From positions 21,399-85,398 of the forward strand of contig CAZHER010000003.1 of assembly GCA_964532005.1 (NCBI GenBank): a stretch of DNA of 64,000 bases. Direction: 5' to 3'. How positions within the stretch are numbered: the first letter of the stretch is position 1; the number at the start of each line of letters is the position of its first letter. Of the stretch, positions 2,826 to 46,740 are shown in pieces. The notes below the pieces were generated by a model. The model made no database searches. It was not told where the DNA came from and saw nothing but the letters and a program-made list of their open reading frames with translations. The translations under genes and the position numbers were made by a program. This DNA comes from an uncultured Candidatus Saccharibacteria bacterium (GTDB taxonomy: Bacteria > Patescibacteriota > Doudnabacteria > UBA920).

Positions 2826-4343
2826 ATGATAGAGACAGGATCTAAAATTAGAACCCGATTTGCTCCAAGCCCCACAGGTCATATTCATGTTGGAAATTTC
2901 CGTACCGCATTGTTTGCATTCTTGTTTGCCCGCCACAATTCCGGAGTGAACGTCCTTCGTATTGAAGATACAGATCAAAACCGCCTCGTAGAGGGAGCGG
3001 TTGAAAGTTTACTTTCGGTTATGCGGAATATGGGAGTGGAGTTTGATGAAGGGTATCACTTAAAAGAAGACGGCAGTCTGGAAACCAGAGGTGAGTATGG
3101 GCCCTACGTTCAGTCGCAAAGGTTGGATATTTACCATAAGTACGTTCAAGATTTAATTGATGGAGGGTATGCTTACTACTGTTTTTGCAGTAGCGAGCGT
3201 TTAGATGAAATTCGCAAAGAACAGATTGCTTTAAAGAAGCCACCGATGTATGACAGGCATTGCCGGAATCTTGCTAAAGAAGAGGTTGGGTCAAAAATTG
3301 CTGAACTAAAATCCGAAGGCAAAAACCCTGTGGTGAGACAGGCAATACCAACAGAAGGACAGACCGTAGTGCACGACATTATTTACGGCGATATTACTTT
3401 TGACAATTCAATATTAGATGACCAAGTAATTTTGAAATCCGATGGTTACCCCACTTATCATTTAGCTGTTGTTGTGGACGATCATTTTATGGAAATTTCT
3501 CACGTTATCCGCGGTGAGGATTGGATTAATTCTACCCCAAAACACGTATTGCTGTATCAGGCTTTCGGTTGGCAACCGACAATATTTGCACATGTACCAA
3601 ATATTTTGAATCAGGACAAAACAAAGCTTTCAAAAAGACAGGGGGATGTAACTGTTGAGGACTTTCTTGCTAAAGGGTATCTAAAAGAAGCTTTGGTAAA
3701 TTTTGTCGCCTTTTTAGGTTGGAATCCAAAGACAGAACAAGAACTGTTTTCTATGGAAGACTTGATTCGAGAATTTGACCTCGCTAAAGTTAACCGCGCT
3801 GGTGCAGTATTCGACCAAAATAAACTTGATTGGATGAACGGCTTGTATATTAGAAGCAAGACCAACACAGAATTGGTGGACATGGTTCAGTCATTTTGGA
3901 AAAATAGCGGCGTAGATGTGGAAAAATATAGCAAGGAATATTTAGAGGGTATAGTATCGTTAGAAAAAGAGCGGATGAAAAAGCTATCCGATATCACAGA
4001 CAGTACCTCGTACTTTTTTAGTAGGCCAAAAGTAGCAAGTAATTTGCTTGTGTGGAGAAAAAGTAATTCTGAACAAACAGGCAAGGTATTGCAGGATCTT
4101 GTTCGGTTTTTCGATCAGACTGATGATACAGATTTTGTGAAAGAGACACTAGAGTTGAAATTAAAAGTTTTTATCGAAACTAACAACTATGACAATGGTA
4201 CAGTGCTGTGGCCTTTGAGATATGCTTTAACTGGTATGGAAAAAAGTCCTGGGCCTTTTGAAGTTGCCTCCGTGCTTCATTTAGGCTTAGGAAAACAAGA
4301 GATTATTGAACGTTTAAAACTAGCTGAGCAATCTTTGTCGTAA
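2826..4343 (+). CDS. gltX: glutamyl-tRNA synthetase
   Basis: Class I HIGH motif (PSPTGHIHVGNFRTALF) and KMSKS-like KLSKRQ; 505 aa. Confidence 0.9.
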   Translation: MIETGSKIRTRFAPSPTGHIHVGNFRTALFAFLFARHNSGVNVLRIEDTDQNRLVEGAVESLLSVMRNMGVEFDEGYHLKEDGSLETRGEYGPYVQSQRLDIYHKYVQDLIDGGYAYYCFCSSERLDEIRKEQIALKKPPMYDRHCRNLAKEEVGSKIAELKSEGKNPVVRQAIPTEGQTVVHDIIYGDITFDNSILDDQVILKSDGYPTYHLAVVVDDHFMEISHVIRGEDWINSTPKHVLLYQAFGWQPTIFAHVPNILNQDKTKLSKRQGDVTVEDFLAKGYLKEALVNFVAFLGWNPKTEQELFSMEDLIREFDLAKVNRAGAVFDQNKLDWMNGLYIRSKTNTELVDMVQSFWKNSGVDVEKYSKEYLEGIVSLEKERMKKLSDITDSTSYFFSRPKVASNLLVWRKSNSEQTGKVLQDLVRFFDQTDDTDFVKETLELKLKVFIETNNYDNGTVLWPLRYALTGMEKSPGPFEVASVLHLGLGKQEIIERLKLAEQSLS

Positions 4344-4345
4344 AT

Positions 4346-4375
4346 TTGGCTAAAACTTCAGTTTTGTGCTATAAT
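4346..4375 (+). promoter_or_regulatory. sigma70-like promoter TTGGCT-18 nt-TATAAT (with TGc extended -10) upstream of the M23 peptidase gene
   Basis: Hexamers at 4346-4351 and 4370-4375, about 12 nt before the ATG at 4387. Confidence 0.4.
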
Positions 4376-4386
4376 GTTGCCATAAT

Positions 4387-5673
4387 ATGAAGAAAAGCCA
4401 TAAAGAAATAAAAACAAAAATATTATATTCTGCCATCTCGGTCGGTCTTATATTTGGGGCCGGTTTTTTGGTTTTTAATTCAGTTTCAGCAGAAACAAGA
4501 CAACAATTACAAGACAAGCTCAGCAACCTTAACAGTAAAATAGGGGAGCTGACCCAAAATGTAAATCGGTTACGCCAACAGGGAGCCACTTTAAAAAACG
4601 AAATTGAGATATATGATTCTCAGATTGCTTCTACAGAATTGGAAATTCAAGCTAACAACACCAGGATTGCAGATATCACCTTGCAGATAGAAGATATCCA
4701 GGTACAGATAGAAAGGAGAGAAAAGGAAATTGCGGATAACAGGAAAATTTTAGCAGAGCTGGTGGTTCAACTGAATGAATTAGACAACAACACTTTTTTG
4801 ACCATGACTTTGGGAAGCGATAATTTTTCATCTTTCTTAGACCAAGTGCAATACACGAAAAGCGTAAATCAGCAGGTGTACGATCTGGTTCAGAAAATAA
4901 AAGATGTAAAACAAAAATTGGAAGATCAGCAAAAAGAACTGAAAGCCCAATTACAGCGCTTAAGCGAACTAAAAGAGGAATTAGAACAAAATCAAGCAGC
5001 TTTAGACGAGCAACGTTCCTCAAAGCAAACCTTGTTAAGTCAAACCCAGGGACAAGAGGGCAAGTATCAAAAAGCTTTAGCTGCCAGCCGCAATGAGCAA
5101 GCTGATGTTCTTCAGGAAATTCAAGGTTTGGATGCGAAAGCTCGAGGTAGCGGGAGCAAAAGTATTGCTGCAAGCAAAGGTGTGCTGGCTTGGCCGATGG
5201 AAGGGGTAATGACTCAAGGATACGGCAACACCGGCTTTACTTCTTTGGGCTATAATTTTCATAACGGTATAGATATTGCAGCTCCTGCTGGCAGGCCAAT
5301 TTACGTTCCGGCAGATGGTACGGTGGTTCGCTGTGCTGGCGGAGCTGCCGCATACGGCAACTGGTGTACTATCAAGCACACCATCGCTACTAAGTCTGGA
5401 AACAGACAAATAGTTACTTTGTTTGCCCATATGACAAAATATGTTTTATCCGGCGGACAAACTGTCAAACGAGGAGACCTGGTCGGTTATGAAGGGAATA
5501 CCGGGAACACCTCTCGTTTGTTGTACGGCCCTGACCGAGGGTATCATTTGCATTTTAGTGTTTTTGATGCAGACGGATTCACCATTACGCCAGGAAAATA
5601 TTCAGCAACTTATGGTCCTTATTTCGTGCCAAGCGGATATACGTATAATCCTTTAGACTTTTTAGGAAAATAA
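4387..5673 (+). CDS. secreted coiled-coil protein with C-terminal M23 (LytM) metalloendopeptidase domain (EnvC-like)
   Basis: Signal peptide, a long heptad-rich coiled coil, then M23 motifs HNGIDIAAP...GRPIYVPADGTV...YHLHFSV. Confidence 0.8.
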   Translation: MKKSHKEIKTKILYSAISVGLIFGAGFLVFNSVSAETRQQLQDKLSNLNSKIGELTQNVNRLRQQGATLKNEIEIYDSQIASTELEIQANNTRIADITLQIEDIQVQIERREKEIADNRKILAELVVQLNELDNNTFLTMTLGSDNFSSFLDQVQYTKSVNQQVYDLVQKIKDVKQKLEDQQKELKAQLQRLSELKEELEQNQAALDEQRSSKQTLLSQTQGQEGKYQKALAASRNEQADVLQEIQGLDAKARGSGSKSIAASKGVLAWPMEGVMTQGYGNTGFTSLGYNFHNGIDIAAPAGRPIYVPADGTVVRCAGGAAAYGNWCTIKHTIATKSGNRQIVTLFAHMTKYVLSGGQTVKRGDLVGYEGNTGNTSRLLYGPDRGYHLHFSVFDADGFTITPGKYSATYGPYFVPSGYTYNPLDFLGK

Positions 5674-12744: not shown

Positions 12745-13344
12745 TTATGCATGGCGGAAATTCTTTCTGAGAACGTCGTAGTAGGCTTCCGTAAGGAGTT
12801 CAAACAGGTTGAACTCCTCATATATTTCGGTGTCCCAAAGCTGTTTGGCGTAGTACACCATGGAGTCCACTAACTCTCCTGAAAAGTAGTCATAAAGCAT
12901 GACATGCAAGACAGTGCAAGACAGGTCGTCTTCGGTCGCTACCCCCAGCACCATCTGCACTTCGTTACCAGAGTCGTAGCCAAAGGCATACTCCGAGTGG
13001 AGCGCTAGTCCGCTGGTGTCTGGTCCAGTAACCCCGGCTTTCAAGTTGCTCTCGGGAATGAGCGACTTGCGGGGTTGGAAGAGCAGCAGCGTTTTACCAT
13101 AACACTTCTTGAACCTGGCAATTTTGCCACCGCCGTTGGGATAGCAAAATGCCCGATCCTCCACCCTCAGCAGCTCGGCAAAAGTTTGATCCAACAGCTC
13201 AGGACTGCTGCCGTATCCCAAGTCCCTCAAAATTGCTGTTAGAGCTTTGGTCGCAAAGCTTATCGCAATTTGTCCGCGCTCCTCCGCTGAATTCCTGCTT
13301 TTAAGCAGTCTTTCCAGCTTATCCTTAATTTCTCTCATACTCAT
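12745..13344 (-). CDS. hypothetical protein (GC-rich ORF, compositionally atypical)
   Basis: 199-aa ORF with no recognised motifs; GC visibly above the local background. Confidence 0.4.
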   Translation of the reverse strand: MSMREIKDKLERLLKSRNSAEERGQIAISFATKALTAILRDLGYGSSPELLDQTFAELLRVEDRAFCYPNGGGKIARFKKCYGKTLLLFQPRKSLIPESNLKAGVTGPDTSGLALHSEYAFGYDSGNEVQMVLGVATEDDLSCTVLHVMLYDYFSGELVDSMVYYAKQLWDTEIYEEFNLFELLTEAYYDVLRKNFRHA

Positions 13345-14014: not shown

Positions 14015-15265
14015 TTAACTTTTGGCTTTATTAAGCTGCTTTATGACAGTAGACAAAGCTTTTACAGTATAGTCTATTTCTTTTTTGGTGTTGTATTTCG
14101 ATAAGGTAATTCTAATGCTGGATAATGCATCCTGCGCAGCTTTACCAAGAGCTAAAATTACATGGGAAGGGTCTGTTGAAGCTGAAGTGCAGGCGCTTCC
14201 CGTTGCAATTGCAACATTGTAACTGTCCATGTAAAACATCAGCATCTCACCTTCAATTCCTTTAATTGAAATATTAATGTTATTGGGCAGTCGTCTTAGT
14301 CCTTGGTTAAACATATTGTTTAGTTTTGTCTTTCTGTCATCTGGTCCATTTATGCTGACTCCCCTAACGGTTTTCAAAATTTGGTTTAGTAGGTAGTCAT
14401 GCAAAGTTTTTATGTTTTTGTTTTGCTTGATGCGGTTTTCTTGGGCCAGCGCAAGAGCTTTAGCCAGTCCAATAAATCCTGCTACATTTTCTGTGCCGCT
14501 TCTAAGATTTCTCTCCTGTCCCCCGCCAAACAATATTGGACGCAAAATAATCCCGGACTTTACATACAAGAACCCGGTTTGCTTGGGAGCATGTATCTTG
14601 CTGCCATTTACCGAAAGCAAATCCACCCCAAGTTTATGAACATTTAAATCTAGACTATTACCAGCCTGGCAAGCATCGCTATGGAATACAATGCTAGGGA
14701 GTTTTGTTGCGATCCTGACTTTGTTTAGTCCAGCAAGCCACTTTCCTATTTCTAGTATTGGCTGAATAGAGCCAACCTCGTTGTTGGCATACATAATAGA
14801 AACAAGAACAGTATTTTTTTTCACAGCTCTTTTTAGTTCATCCAGCTTTATAAACCCATCTTTGTTGACATCTACTAAAGTAATTTGCCACCCTTCTTCT
14901 TTCAGAGCTTCCAAAGAATGCAGTACCGCATGATGTTCTATTGTAGAGGAAATAATATGACCTTTATGTTTGTGATCTAATTCGTATTGCCGTGCAACAC
15001 CAAAAATAGCCAGGTTAATGCTTTCGGTGCCGCCAGCAGTAAAAACTACTTCCTTTGAATTTGCATTTATCGATTCTGCTATGGTTTGGCGCGCCATGTT
15101 TAAGGCGTACGCAGCTTGTTGGCCAGATCTGTATAGGCTGGAAGGATTACCAAATTCTGTCATGTAGTAAGGCTGCATGGCTTTGGCTACTTTTGGGTCA
15201 ATAGCTGTTGTAGCGGCATTATCTAAGTAAATTAGATTTTTAGAAGGTTTTAATTTATTTAACAT
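14015..15265 (-). CDS. cysteine desulfurase (class V aminotransferase, IscS/NifS-like)
   Basis: LDNAATT, SSTIEHHAV, SGSKIHAPKQTG (PLP-lysine motif) and the HSDACQ catalytic Cys loop. The ORF track uses an upstream TTG at 15289; ATG 15265 is preferred. Confidence 0.85.
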   Translation of the reverse strand: MLNKLKPSKNLIYLDNAATTAIDPKVAKAMQPYYMTEFGNPSSLYRSGQQAAYALNMARQTIAESINANSKEVVFTAGGTESINLAIFGVARQYELDHKHKGHIISSTIEHHAVLHSLEALKEEGWQITLVDVNKDGFIKLDELKRAVKKNTVLVSIMYANNEVGSIQPILEIGKWLAGLNKVRIATKLPSIVFHSDACQAGNSLDLNVHKLGVDLLSVNGSKIHAPKQTGFLYVKSGIILRPILFGGGQERNLRSGTENVAGFIGLAKALALAQENRIKQNKNIKTLHDYLLNQILKTVRGVSINGPDDRKTKLNNMFNQGLRRLPNNINISIKGIEGEMLMFYMDSYNVAIATGSACTSASTDPSHVILALGKAAQDALSSIRITLSKYNTKKEIDYTVKALSTVIKQLNKAKS

Positions 15266-15310
15266 ATAAATAATGGTAGCAAAAACCAAGCTACTTGGCT
15301 AAATTTAGAC

Positions 15311-15340
15311 AAAAGAAAAGAGAGGAAAAGTCTTCTTTTC
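15311..15340 (-). terminator. rho-independent terminator for a minus-strand transcript (gaaaag-tctt-cttttc, then TCTCTTTTCTTTT on the minus strand)
   Basis: 6-bp stem plus T-rich tail, between the GC-rich island and the iscS-like start. Confidence 0.4.
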
Positions 15341-15344
15341 AAGA

Positions 15345-15700
15345 GTGCTCTGAAATCTTGCGGTGAGCAAACCTGAAAATAAACTTTTCCCCTCGCGTGG
15401 CGGGCAACCTTACCTCCTAAACTTCAGGAGAAGTGCCCGTGCCCGGCTTGTCCGCCGCTATCCGTTGCGGTTGCCGGAGTCGCTGTTCGCGCCCGCGTCG
15501 CCGATCTTCTTGGTCATAGTCATATTCAAAAGCGCCGGCGGCGATGCGAAAATTTTTCGTTTCATTGTTTTTTCCTCCTGCTTTTTGGGCAGATTTTGGG
15601 GCAGACCGACTCGGTTGGTAGCCCCTTGCCTTTGGAAATGGGACAAACTGCGTCCCGTTTTTTACTCCCACGTACTACAAGGAGTTTACGTATTATAAGT
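15345..15700. other. GC-rich, structure-rich island (unclassified): candidate ncRNA or leader carrying a 35-codon SD-ATG mini-ORF on the minus strand
   Basis: GC far above the flanks, multiple hairpins, terminators on both strands, and AGGAGG-8 nt-ATG (MKRKIFASPPALLNMTMTKKIGDAGANSDSGNRNG). No tmRNA, RNase P or SRP signatures found. Confidence 0.3.
15640..15663 (+). terminator. rho-independent terminator on the + strand (gggac-aaactgc-gtccc-gtttttt)
   Basis: Perfect 5-bp GC stem plus a T6 tail. Confidence 0.5.
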
Positions 15701-15765
15701 AGGGTTTTTGTCAAGACCATAGCCTTTTTTATATCAAAAATCCTTATAAATAAAGCAAAATAAAT

Positions 15766-16134
15766 TTATTTGTTGCTGGCTGCAAATTCAGCTGCCACAG
15801 CATCCTCTTCAGTAGCAAAACATTGTTCGGGTTTAACTTGGGCATAACCGCGGTCAGTTGGCAGATAATATTTCTTCTCATTTTTAGCATCAATATTGCC
15901 CTTAATTGGGCAGTTGGGATCCCCCTTTTTTTGTGAGGTTGGTTTGGGCGTGCTGGAAGTGGTATAATTTATAGGCGGAGTTCCACTTTTGGGACCATTT
16001 TTATAAAGAGGCAAATTACTAGACTTGCCGGTGCCGTAGCCAACTCCAAAAATTACGATGCCGCAGAATATTAATAGAAACCTGCGCTTGTTTTCTGAAA
16101 AAAATGTTTTTATTTTTTGATACAAAACTGTCAT
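15766..16134 (-). CDS. hypothetical membrane-anchored small protein with C-terminal Cys-x-IKGN...Y.P...Y...CF..EE.A..A module
   Basis: N-terminal TM (FLLIFCGIVIFGVGYG). The C-terminal motif resembles small extracellular modules attached to secreted nucleases and competence proteins. Confidence 0.45.
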   Translation of the reverse strand: MTVLYQKIKTFFSENKRRFLLIFCGIVIFGVGYGTGKSSNLPLYKNGPKSGTPPINYTTSSTPKPTSQKKGDPNCPIKGNIDAKNEKKYYLPTDRGYAQVKPEQCFATEEDAVAAEFAASNK

Positions 16135-46408: not shown

Positions 46409-46485
46409 TGGCGGACTGAACGGGACTCGAACCCGCGACCTTCCGCGTGACAGGCGGACGCTCTAACCAACTGAGCTACCAGTCC
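46409..46485 (-). tRNA. tRNA-Asp (GTC), CCA encoded
   Basis: Cloverleaf GGACUGG...anticodon loop cuGUCac...TΨC GGUUCGAGUCC...CCAGUCCGCCA. Confidence 0.85.
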
Positions 46486-46516
46486 ATATTTTAGAAACTT
46501 CTCAACAATGTGTTAT

Positions 46517-46593
46517 TGGTACCGGCGGCAGGAATTGAACCTGCGACCTAAGGCTTATGAGTCCTTCGCTCTAACCAACTGAGCTACGCCGGC
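46517..46593 (-). tRNA. tRNA-Met (CAT), elongator type (G1-C72; tRNA-Ile2/lysidine not excluded), CCA encoded
   Basis: GCCGGCGUAGCUCAGUUGGUUAGAGC...CUCAUAA...GGUUCAAUUCC...CGCCGGUACCA. Confidence 0.8.
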
Positions 46594-46664
46594 TCGTATA
46601 AATTCCTAACCGAGTCAGATTTCATTTACTATAGCACGAAGCCTTTCCTAAATAAAAGCTGGCT

Positions 46665-46740
46665 TGGTTGCGGGACCCGGATTCGAACCGGGAACCTCAA
46701 GGTTATGAGCCTTGCGAGCTGCCAATTGCTCTATCCCGCG
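46665..46740 (-). tRNA. initiator tRNA-fMet (CAT), CCA encoded
   Basis: C1•A72 mismatch; the whole sequence closely parallels E. coli tRNAfMet (CGCGGG..AGCUCG..CUCAUAACC..CCCGCAACCA). Confidence 0.85.

Follow-up and report, generated by a model that had tools for sequence, protein, structure and literature searches.

A candidate small-protein gene with a structured messenger RNA and a conserved 3′ hairpin next to a cysteine desulfurase gene of Candidatus Saccharibacteria

Introduction

The described systems closest to the locus reported here are the small open reading frame (ORF) genes of bacteria; RNAs that derive from a 3′ untranslated region (3′UTR) or have a dual function, of which SgrS/SgrT and RNAIII/hld are examples; the leader-peptide attenuators (trp, his and thr); and the messenger RNAs (mRNAs) of type I toxins (hok, aapA, tisB and fst). 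The locus lies in a 64,000-nucleotide stretch of DNA from an uncultured Candidatus Saccharibacteria bacterium (GenBank assembly GCA_964532005.1, contig CAZHER010000003.1, positions 21,399 to 85,398). This stretch is called the window below, and coordinates refer to it unless another contig is named. The locus is an island of GC-rich DNA in a 500-bp gap that separates two minus-strand genes, one for a sunset-domain protein and one for a cysteine desulfurase. The island is probably, though by no means certainly, a dispensable orphan gene for a small protein, restricted to one clade and transcribed into a heavily structured mRNA.

Like bacterial small ORF genes, the island has its own predicted sigma-70 promoter, a strong Shine–Dalgarno (SD) sequence, an ATG-initiated frame of 35–51 codons and an intrinsic terminator. 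Its putative product is a lineage-restricted orphan peptide that most gene callers miss. It differs from such genes in its strong GC bias at third codon positions (GC3) within an AT-rich genome, in untranslated regions that are longer than the ORF, in a 3′ hairpin that is better conserved than the ORF and in the hypervariability of the peptide. A conserved module close to the terminator and a small, presumably translated ORF on one transcript recall the 3′UTR-derived and dual-function RNAs; there is no Rfam homology, however, and the likeness is one of conservation only. With the leader-peptide attenuators the island shares a short ORF with a good SD sequence, hairpins, a terminator and a biosynthetic gene downstream on the same strand. 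However, it has no regulatory codon run, 59–138 nt separate its stop codon from the terminator, the gene downstream has a predicted promoter of its own that island-free relatives keep, and other ORFs intervene in two relatives. The type I toxin mRNAs also have a folded leader touching the SD sequence, a small ORF, a stable terminator and a patchy presence, but the peptide here is hydrophilic, and neither an antisense promoter nor a conserved antisense RNA was found.

The small proteins and non-coding elements of the Patescibacteria (candidate phyla radiation) are almost unannotated, and the public gene call at this locus is an 84-residue frame that is probably wrong. The locus provides a concrete case of a small ORF that is specific to one clade and has a full set of expression signals. 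Two of its patterns are hard to explain by termination alone: the hairpin is conserved far beyond its neighbors, and the hairpin type is at odds with the phylogeny of the neighboring gene. A tempting but wrong annotation, in which the island would be a leader that regulates the cysteine desulfurase gene, is removed as well.

Results and Discussion

Conservation in relatives, on which the preliminary description of this DNA had made its account depend, was looked for and found. Homologous islands lie in five other Saccharibacteria-like contigs, each 5′ of the desulfurase gene and on the same strand (Table 1). Anchored on the desulfurase and on its sunset-domain neighbor, the search recovered these loci from the source sets ERZ15185866, SRR32910794, DRR235452, SRR31724218, SRR8088706 and SRR22388067. 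The mini-ORF of 35 codons, given earlier as AGGAGG, 8 nt and ATG, was confirmed exactly on reading the sequence. In the homologues, AGGAGG or GGAGG is followed after 6–14 nt by ATGAA. The frame is open in all five copies of the ORF (35, 35, 44, 46 and 51 codons).

The five ORFs show a clear three-base periodicity over 206 codons. Purines make up 0.81, 0.52 and 0.45 of codon positions 1, 2 and 3, and the GC fractions at these positions are 0.40, 0.50 and 0.66. The first-position purine value was reached by none of 10,000 within-ORF shuffles. Taken together, this periodicity, the kept ribosome binding site and start codon, and a frame that stays open in each of five highly divergent copies are good evidence that the ORF would be translated. 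A small protein gene, one of three readings put forward in the preliminary description, is thus the best supported of them.

The proposed course of expression is as follows. Transcription would start near 15685 on the minus strand from a sigma-70-type promoter and yield an RNA of about 375 nt. A stem-loop at its 5′ end and two more leader hairpins would stabilize this RNA, and a fourth hairpin would adjoin the strong SD sequence. Translation of the 35-codon ORF (35–51 codons in relatives) would give a hydrophilic, Gly/Asn/Thr-rich, probably disordered and very fast-evolving peptide. The transcript would be ended by GC-rich 3′ hairpins and a 75-nt hairpin with a U-tract, before the separate promoter of the desulfurase gene is reached.

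Table 1. Features of the island and its flanks in the window, in minus-strand order, and homologous loci on other contigs.
Feature	Contig	Position	Strand	Description
Sunset-domain gene	window	16134-15766	minus	122 amino acids, membrane-anchored, C-terminal sunset domain; NCBIfam NF051437, E 6.5e-14
Direct repeat, left copy	window	15761..15768	minus	8 bp, TAAATTTA; includes stop codon of sunset-domain gene
Island promoter (predicted)	window	15692..15714	minus	TTGACA 15714-15709, TATAAT 15697-15692; spacer 11 nt
5′ stem-loop	window	15664..15685	minus	ACUCCU / GGGAGU; begins about 7 nt past the -10 box, where the transcript is predicted to start
Second leader stem-loop	window	15640..15657	minus	Reverse complement of the plus-strand terminator proposed earlier
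Third leader stem-loop	window	15598..15625	minus	GGGGC...GCCCC; fold prediction
Hairpin at SD sequence	window	15574..15592	minus	CUGC-CCAAAAA-GCAG; 3′ arm covers the first two bases of AGGAGG (15579-15574)
Small ORF (putative)	window	15458..15565	minus	AGGAGG 15579-15574, 8 nt, ATG 15565; 35 codons + TAG (stop 15460-15458); product MKRKIFASPPALLNMTMTKKIGDAGANSDSGNRNG
3′ untranslated spacer	window	15395..15457	minus	GC-rich (0.65), structured; fold and composition
Long terminator hairpin	window	15394-15320	minus	Followed by U-tract UUUUCUUUU 15319-15311; dG -35.1 kcal/mol, z -5.7
Direct repeat, right copy	window	15300..15307	minus	TAAATTTA; read from sequence
Desulfurase promoter (predicted; not part of island)	window	15273..15281	minus	Extended -10, TGc-TACCAT; 7 nt before ATG 15265
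Class-V aminotransferase / cysteine desulfurase gene	window	true start ATG 15265	minus	Pfam PF00266, E 5.9e-70
Island homologue	L002 / L003			Desulfurase 81% identical to that of window
Island homologue	L006 / L007 / L011			Desulfurase 66% identical to that of window
Island homologue	L010			Desulfurase 67% identical to that of window
Island homologue	L012			Desulfurase 72% identical to that of window
3′ hairpin only, at contig start	L013			Desulfurase 69% identical to that of window

Several observations weigh against a simple small-protein gene. The GC3 of the ORFs is 0.62–0.74 (0.74 in the window) as opposed to 0.37 for the genome, and the codons GCG, CCG and TCG, rare in this genome, are used; the ATP synthase and ribosomal protein genes of the window have no such bias. 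A non-coding constraint, which is probably RNA structure, acts on the same bases. The GC-rich part has several other open frames as well, and in translated comparisons of all frames the ORF frame does not clearly stand out, as other frames score similarly. The peptides share a weak identity of 14–40%. No relatives outside the set were found by a word-index search of 5.8 billion proteins or by a full HMMER search with the peptide profile over 1.84 billion representatives. The best-conserved part of the island is the non-coding 3′ hairpin rather than the ORF. The spacer of the window promoter is only 11 nt long, and from this the window copy may be weakly expressed or decaying.

The window is identical to the European Nucleotide Archive metagenome contig L001, on which positions 3619–3873 (15417–15671 of the window, minus strand) are called as an 84-residue, GTG-initiated frame and not as the SD–ATG mini-ORF. 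We consider this call to be probably a mis-annotation that arose from the open frames of GC-rich DNA. Only the L010 and L011 copies of the mini-ORF are called correctly. The alternative long ORFs (111 residues on the plus strand; 84 and 62 residues on the minus strand) have no match in Pfam or NCBIfam.

The five peptides are alike in composition. They contain 37–57% Gly, Asn, Ser and Thr and no Cys, have a net charge of +1 to +4, and their grand average of hydropathy (GRAVY) is −0.35 to −0.87. The highest hydropathy over 15 residues is at most 1.0, that is, there is no membrane helix. Common motifs are an MK[KN] start, G-[AT]-N, TGTN...GG and FNF. An AlphaFold model of the window peptide has no secondary structure, with a predicted local distance difference test score of 64.6 and a predicted template modeling score of 0.14. 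The peptide is thus predicted to be hydrophilic, mildly basic, fast-evolving and probably disordered. Its mass is 3.6 kDa, and trypsin would release IGDAGANSDSGNR. None of the five peptides matches Pfam or NCBIfam, and the only proteins recovered with the profile were the L010 and L006 peptides and a low-complexity protein of 1141 residues.

The predicted promoter is best seen in the relatives. L006 has TTGACA-17-TATAAT, matching 12 of 12 consensus positions and TG-extended. L002 has TTGACA-17-CATAAT (11 of 12, with TG), and a TG-extended TATAAT is present in the promoter region of L010. The spacer in the window has been shortened by a 6-nt deletion relative to the 17 nt of L002 and L006, and the promoter scan did not flag the window copy.

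The leader keeps its stems better than its sequence. The arms of the 5′ stem-loop are ACUCCU/GGGAGU in the window, AUCCU/AGGAU in L002, UGCU/AGCA in L006 and UGCUU/AGGCA in L010; both sides have changed and the pairing is kept. Predicted folds give this stem-loop only in the centroid structure of the window and the minimum-energy fold of L006, and those in L002 and L010, whose folds differ, were read from the sequence. Hairpins analogous to the third leader stem-loop are GGAGU...ACUCC in L006 and GGGGU...ACCCC in L012. A stem abutting the SD sequence is found elsewhere as CUACC-GAAA-GGUAG (L002 and L006) or GCUCC...GGAGC (L010). The middle of the RNA cannot be aligned between relatives, and there is no conserved global fold.

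The second leader stem-loop bears on a plus-strand terminator that had been proposed at 15640–15663. The sequence described is indeed there (GGGAC-AAACTGC-GTCCC-GTTTTTT), but the A-run that would give the U-tail is not kept in the homologues: the L006 counterpart, CGGGAUGCAGUUUAUUCCG, lacks a flanking A-run. This terminator is probably incidental. A minus-strand terminator at 15311–15340 was the companion claim. There is a terminator here, but that span covers only the 3′ arm and the U-tract of the 75-nt hairpin. Neither of the two was listed by the terminator scan. The apical loop of the long hairpin (15364–15351) has 14 nt, exceeding the 3–8 nt that a simple scan allows, which is why the long terminator was missed.

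The GC-rich, structured character of the segment, noted from the outset, holds up in a composition scan and in folding. The contig has a GC content of about 38–40% and a coding GC3 of 0.37. The GC fraction is 0.52–0.55 across 15300–15599 and 0.33–0.40 in the flanks. By segment it is 0.50 in the 5′ untranslated region, 0.55 in the ORF, 0.65 in the 3′ spacer and 0.41 in the terminator hairpin. The high GC of the island in a 38% GC genome has two sources, codons ending in G or C and the GC-rich stems of the untranslated regions. A 401-nt stretch forms a more stable fold than its dinucleotide shuffles do, on the minus strand (z −3.8, 0 of 100 shuffles) and on the plus strand (z −2.7, 1 of 100).

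The 3′ hairpin is the most constant element of the island. The spacer between the stop codon and the terminator stem is 59–138 nt long, with a GC fraction of 0.55–0.64 in L002, L006 and L010 and 0.44 in L012. It is followed in every homologue by a hairpin of 70–75 nt and a U-tract; in the window and all five homologues the stable stem-loop runs directly into the U-tract, as in an intrinsic terminator. The five distinct versions of the hairpin have z values of −4.3 to −7.3 (0 of 200 shuffles). With RNAalifold, a consensus fold emerged for no more than the outer 9 bp of the five in a MAFFT alignment, whose interior is misaligned, and per-sequence folds were used instead. A stretch of 100 nt (15394–15295) that opens with the hairpin and takes in the U-tract is 100% identical between the window and L012. 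Elsewhere the two are 40–50% identical across the leader and ORF and about 70% identical through the desulfurase gene at the nucleotide level. A second hairpin type is found in L002, L006 and L010 at 81–87% mutual identity (their desulfurases are 66–69% identical as proteins), and L013 has a third.

All hairpin types have the apical-loop motif G-Y-A-A-K-A-Y (GCAAGAU, in the window, GUAAUAU, GUAAUAC and GCAAUAC) and the long-stem arms GAGGRRAAG/CUUYYCCUC. A promoter within the terminator loop (TAATAT at the apex in L002, L006 and L010) was considered and rejected, since L002, L013 and the window agree neither in the hexamers nor in their spacing. The type of hairpin is out of step with the desulfurase tree. 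The window pairs with L012 (desulfurase 72% identical) and not with its sister L002 (81%), which has the second type. To account for this conflict, the hairpin segment must have been exchanged between lineages recently and at least once.

Judged from the sequences compared, conservation of the hairpin is beyond the needs of termination, and it is the main argument for a function at the RNA level. The functional product could then be the RNA itself, with the conserved hairpin, alone or as a 3′-derived small RNA, binding a protein or another RNA, and with the ORF incidental or serving only for ribosome loading or stabilization. We hold this to be possible but doubtful. It would account for the fact that the hairpin is the best-conserved segment (over 100 nt between the window and L012, and among L002, L006 and L010), for a loop motif shared by three hairpin types, for the structural constraint indicated by the GC3 and the GC-rich stems, and for an RNA that as a whole folds better than shuffles. 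However, the three-base periodicity, the kept SD–ATG and the frame open in all five copies are unexpected for a purely structural RNA. The alignment fails in the middle of the molecule, each locus has one copy, and neither a partner nor a target was found. The complete identity between the window and L012 may also stem from recent recombination rather than from constraint.

The island is not a known RNA. In agreement with the preliminary description, which had seen no signatures of transfer-messenger RNA (tmRNA), RNase P or signal recognition particle (SRP) RNA, ARAGORN found no tmRNA in the window. Rfam 15 at its gathering thresholds gave only five tRNAs in the whole window, all of them elsewhere. 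At E≤10, the region 15200–15850 had only chance-level matches of at most 19 bits (cut-offs are 42–76), and at E≤5 the five homologous loci had none. The island is assigned to no known family. As it is missing in relatives it is dispensable, and a housekeeping RNA is thereby ruled out; SRP RNA, 6S RNA and RNase P RNA were rejected on these two grounds. Of the stable non-coding RNA suggested earlier, the housekeeping kind is therefore excluded, and a regulatory role of the conserved 3′ hairpin RNA is possible.

The small-protein reading may be carried further. The island might be an accessory module in an evolutionary arms race of episymbiotic Saccharibacteria. Its peptide, highly expressed, hypervariable and disordered, would for example be an effector or signal directed at the host bacterium or at competitors. 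It would be joined to a sequence-specific 3′ RNA hairpin, exchanged by recombination between lineages, that has a separate role such as RNA targeting, export or the binding of a protein. We regard this combination as rather unlikely.

The island is patchy in its distribution. It directly follows the sunset-domain gene in L002, L006/L007 and L010, all three of the five homologues whose upstream flank is assembled; the L012 and L013 contigs begin inside the island, and their upstream flank is not covered. There is no island in L004, where the sunset gene is missing as well, in L008, in L009 or in the contig carrying P0124. The last three have the sunset gene. The sunset gene of L008 has its stop codon immediately before the block upstream of the desulfurase gene, and the junction reads TAAATATTTAGCC. 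As L008 matches L012 nearly base for base downstream of the island, it represents an empty site in a close relative. Other genes occupy the interval in L009 and in the P0124-carrying contig; L009 has an IS1595-family transposase and other ORFs between the sunset-domain and desulfurase genes (4035–4883). The interval looks like an insertion hot spot.

Wider searches added little. With the sunset-domain anchor, genome contigs gave one short contig with an empty site, and the metagenome contigs searched gave no further loci. The loop pattern CACCTG.TAATA..TGGGCAC, taken from the hairpin type of L002, L006 and L010, had 49 matches in metagenome contigs, all of which were unrelated on inspection. 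From its occurrence in these sequences, the island is most likely a narrow-clade element of Saccharibacteria (Patescibacteria).

The boundaries of the island show possible footprints of mobility. In the window the two copies of TAAATTTA flank the whole island, one at 15768–15761 and the other at 15307–15300. In L012 the hairpin alone is flanked by ATTTAACCAAT (262–276) and ATTTAGCCAAT (372–386). A single AT-rich site at which DNA was inserted or deleted could have left these direct repeats. Neither the 64-kb window nor the fetched loci contain a further copy of any island segment, and phage and plasmid blastn searches and two pattern scans of viral contigs gave no match to it. A multi-copy miniature inverted-repeat transposable element or a hairpin like repetitive extragenic palindromes was rejected, the element being single-copy in the window and in each locus examined. 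An integron attC-like hairpin was rejected for its single copy and lack of core sites. A diversity-generating retroelement, suggested by the many AAC codons, was rejected because there is no second repeat within the 64-kb window.

Patchy presence, the repeats around the island and around the L012 hairpin, the IS1595 transposase in the same interval of L009, the departure of the hairpin type from the desulfurase tree, the atypical base composition and the shortened promoter spacer of the window would all suit a decaying remnant of laterally acquired or mobile DNA. Such a remnant would have no present function, and its ORF and hairpins would persist by chance or by hitch-hiking. We consider this unlikely. 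Promoter, SD sequence, ATG, frame and terminator are all kept across loci whose desulfurases are 66–72% identical, which is unexpected under neutral decay, and neither a second copy in the window or the fetched loci nor a match in the phage, plasmid and viral collections was found.

The island is independent of the desulfurase gene. In nine loci, among them the island-free L004, L005 and L008, the desulfurase gene is preceded by a block reading TTTTTGnTACCAT-N7-ATG. It is part of 45 conserved nucleotides before the desulfurase ATG (TTTAGC..., TTTTTG-n-TACCAT, 7 nt, ATG; window 15263–15310, and L002, L004, L005, L006, L008, L010, L012 and L013). This block sits downstream of the island terminator, and no SD sequence precedes the ATG. 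As the TG-extended −10 element would place the start of transcription at or next to the ATG, the arrangement suggests that the desulfurase gene is transcribed from its own promoter as a leaderless mRNA.

In L002 and L006 other ORFs stand between the terminator and this block, a 41-residue membrane ORF and a 149-residue ORF, respectively. The next ORF begins 10–35 nt past the U-tract and has no obvious promoter, so some read-through of the terminator is likely in these two. The L002 ORF (3831–3956, MKLIFPIILFTTWVLTMAIIYWQCYREIRQDEKNRKKDKSN) is strongly hydrophobic, has GGAG and a 7-nt spacer before its ATG, begins 10 nt past the terminator and has no counterpart in the window.

The preliminary description had also considered a leader-peptide attenuator of the desulfurase (iscS-like) gene, and this is contradicted. 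Translation of the mini-ORF would govern the terminator in cis and hence read-through into the desulfurase gene. The gene is downstream on the same strand in six of six loci, and the ORFs close behind the U-tract in L002 and L006 would fit some read-through. A short alternative hairpin, read from sequence, might compete with the long stem (AAGCGA/UCGCUU in L002, L006 and L010; AGAAGA/UCUUUU in the window). However, the TGnTACCAT-N7-ATG block, from which the desulfurase transcript is predicted to start, is kept beyond the terminator in nine loci of which three are island-free, and the empty site of L008 retains it. The two intervening ORFs separate island and gene, and the five peptides have no Cys codon and no common codon run. 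A stop codon 59–138 nt before the terminator stem is too far away for a ribosome to choose between hairpins. Attenuation is thus quite improbable.

A type I toxin–antitoxin-like locus, in which an antisense RNA terminated on the plus strand at 15640–15668 would repress the mRNA of a small toxic peptide, is very improbable in spite of the promoter, the folded leader touching the SD sequence, the ORF of 35–51 codons, the strong terminator, the patchy distribution and antisense-oriented, terminator-like hairpins in the leaders of the window and L002, since the peptides are hydrophilic by their GRAVY and have no membrane helix, the promoter scan found no plus-strand promoter, and the antisense terminators are at non-homologous positions and not evident in the L006 or L010 leaders, the scan of L006 listing none.

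Genomic Setting

The relatives of the window are Patescibacteria, the closest named one being a Candidatus Saccharibacteria metagenome-assembled genome. The protein upstream of the island carries the precomputed Pfam label ‘ArfC’ (PF27542), and a literature search on ArfC and on non-coding RNA of Saccharibacteria returned nothing relevant.

The island is not the only compositional outlier in the window. Two genes downstream of the desulfurase gene, a 199-residue ORF on the minus strand (12745–13344) without a Pfam match has a GC fraction of 0.50 and a GC3 of 0.60, compared with 0.37 for the genome. An ORF of similar length (194 residues) is present at the matching position in L002; the likeness is in length and place alone. 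Three clustered tRNA genes (Asp-GTC, Met-CAT and Met-CAT) lie at 46409–46740 on the minus strand, and genes for tRNA-Thr and tRNA-Gly are located at 55.7 and 57.4 kb.

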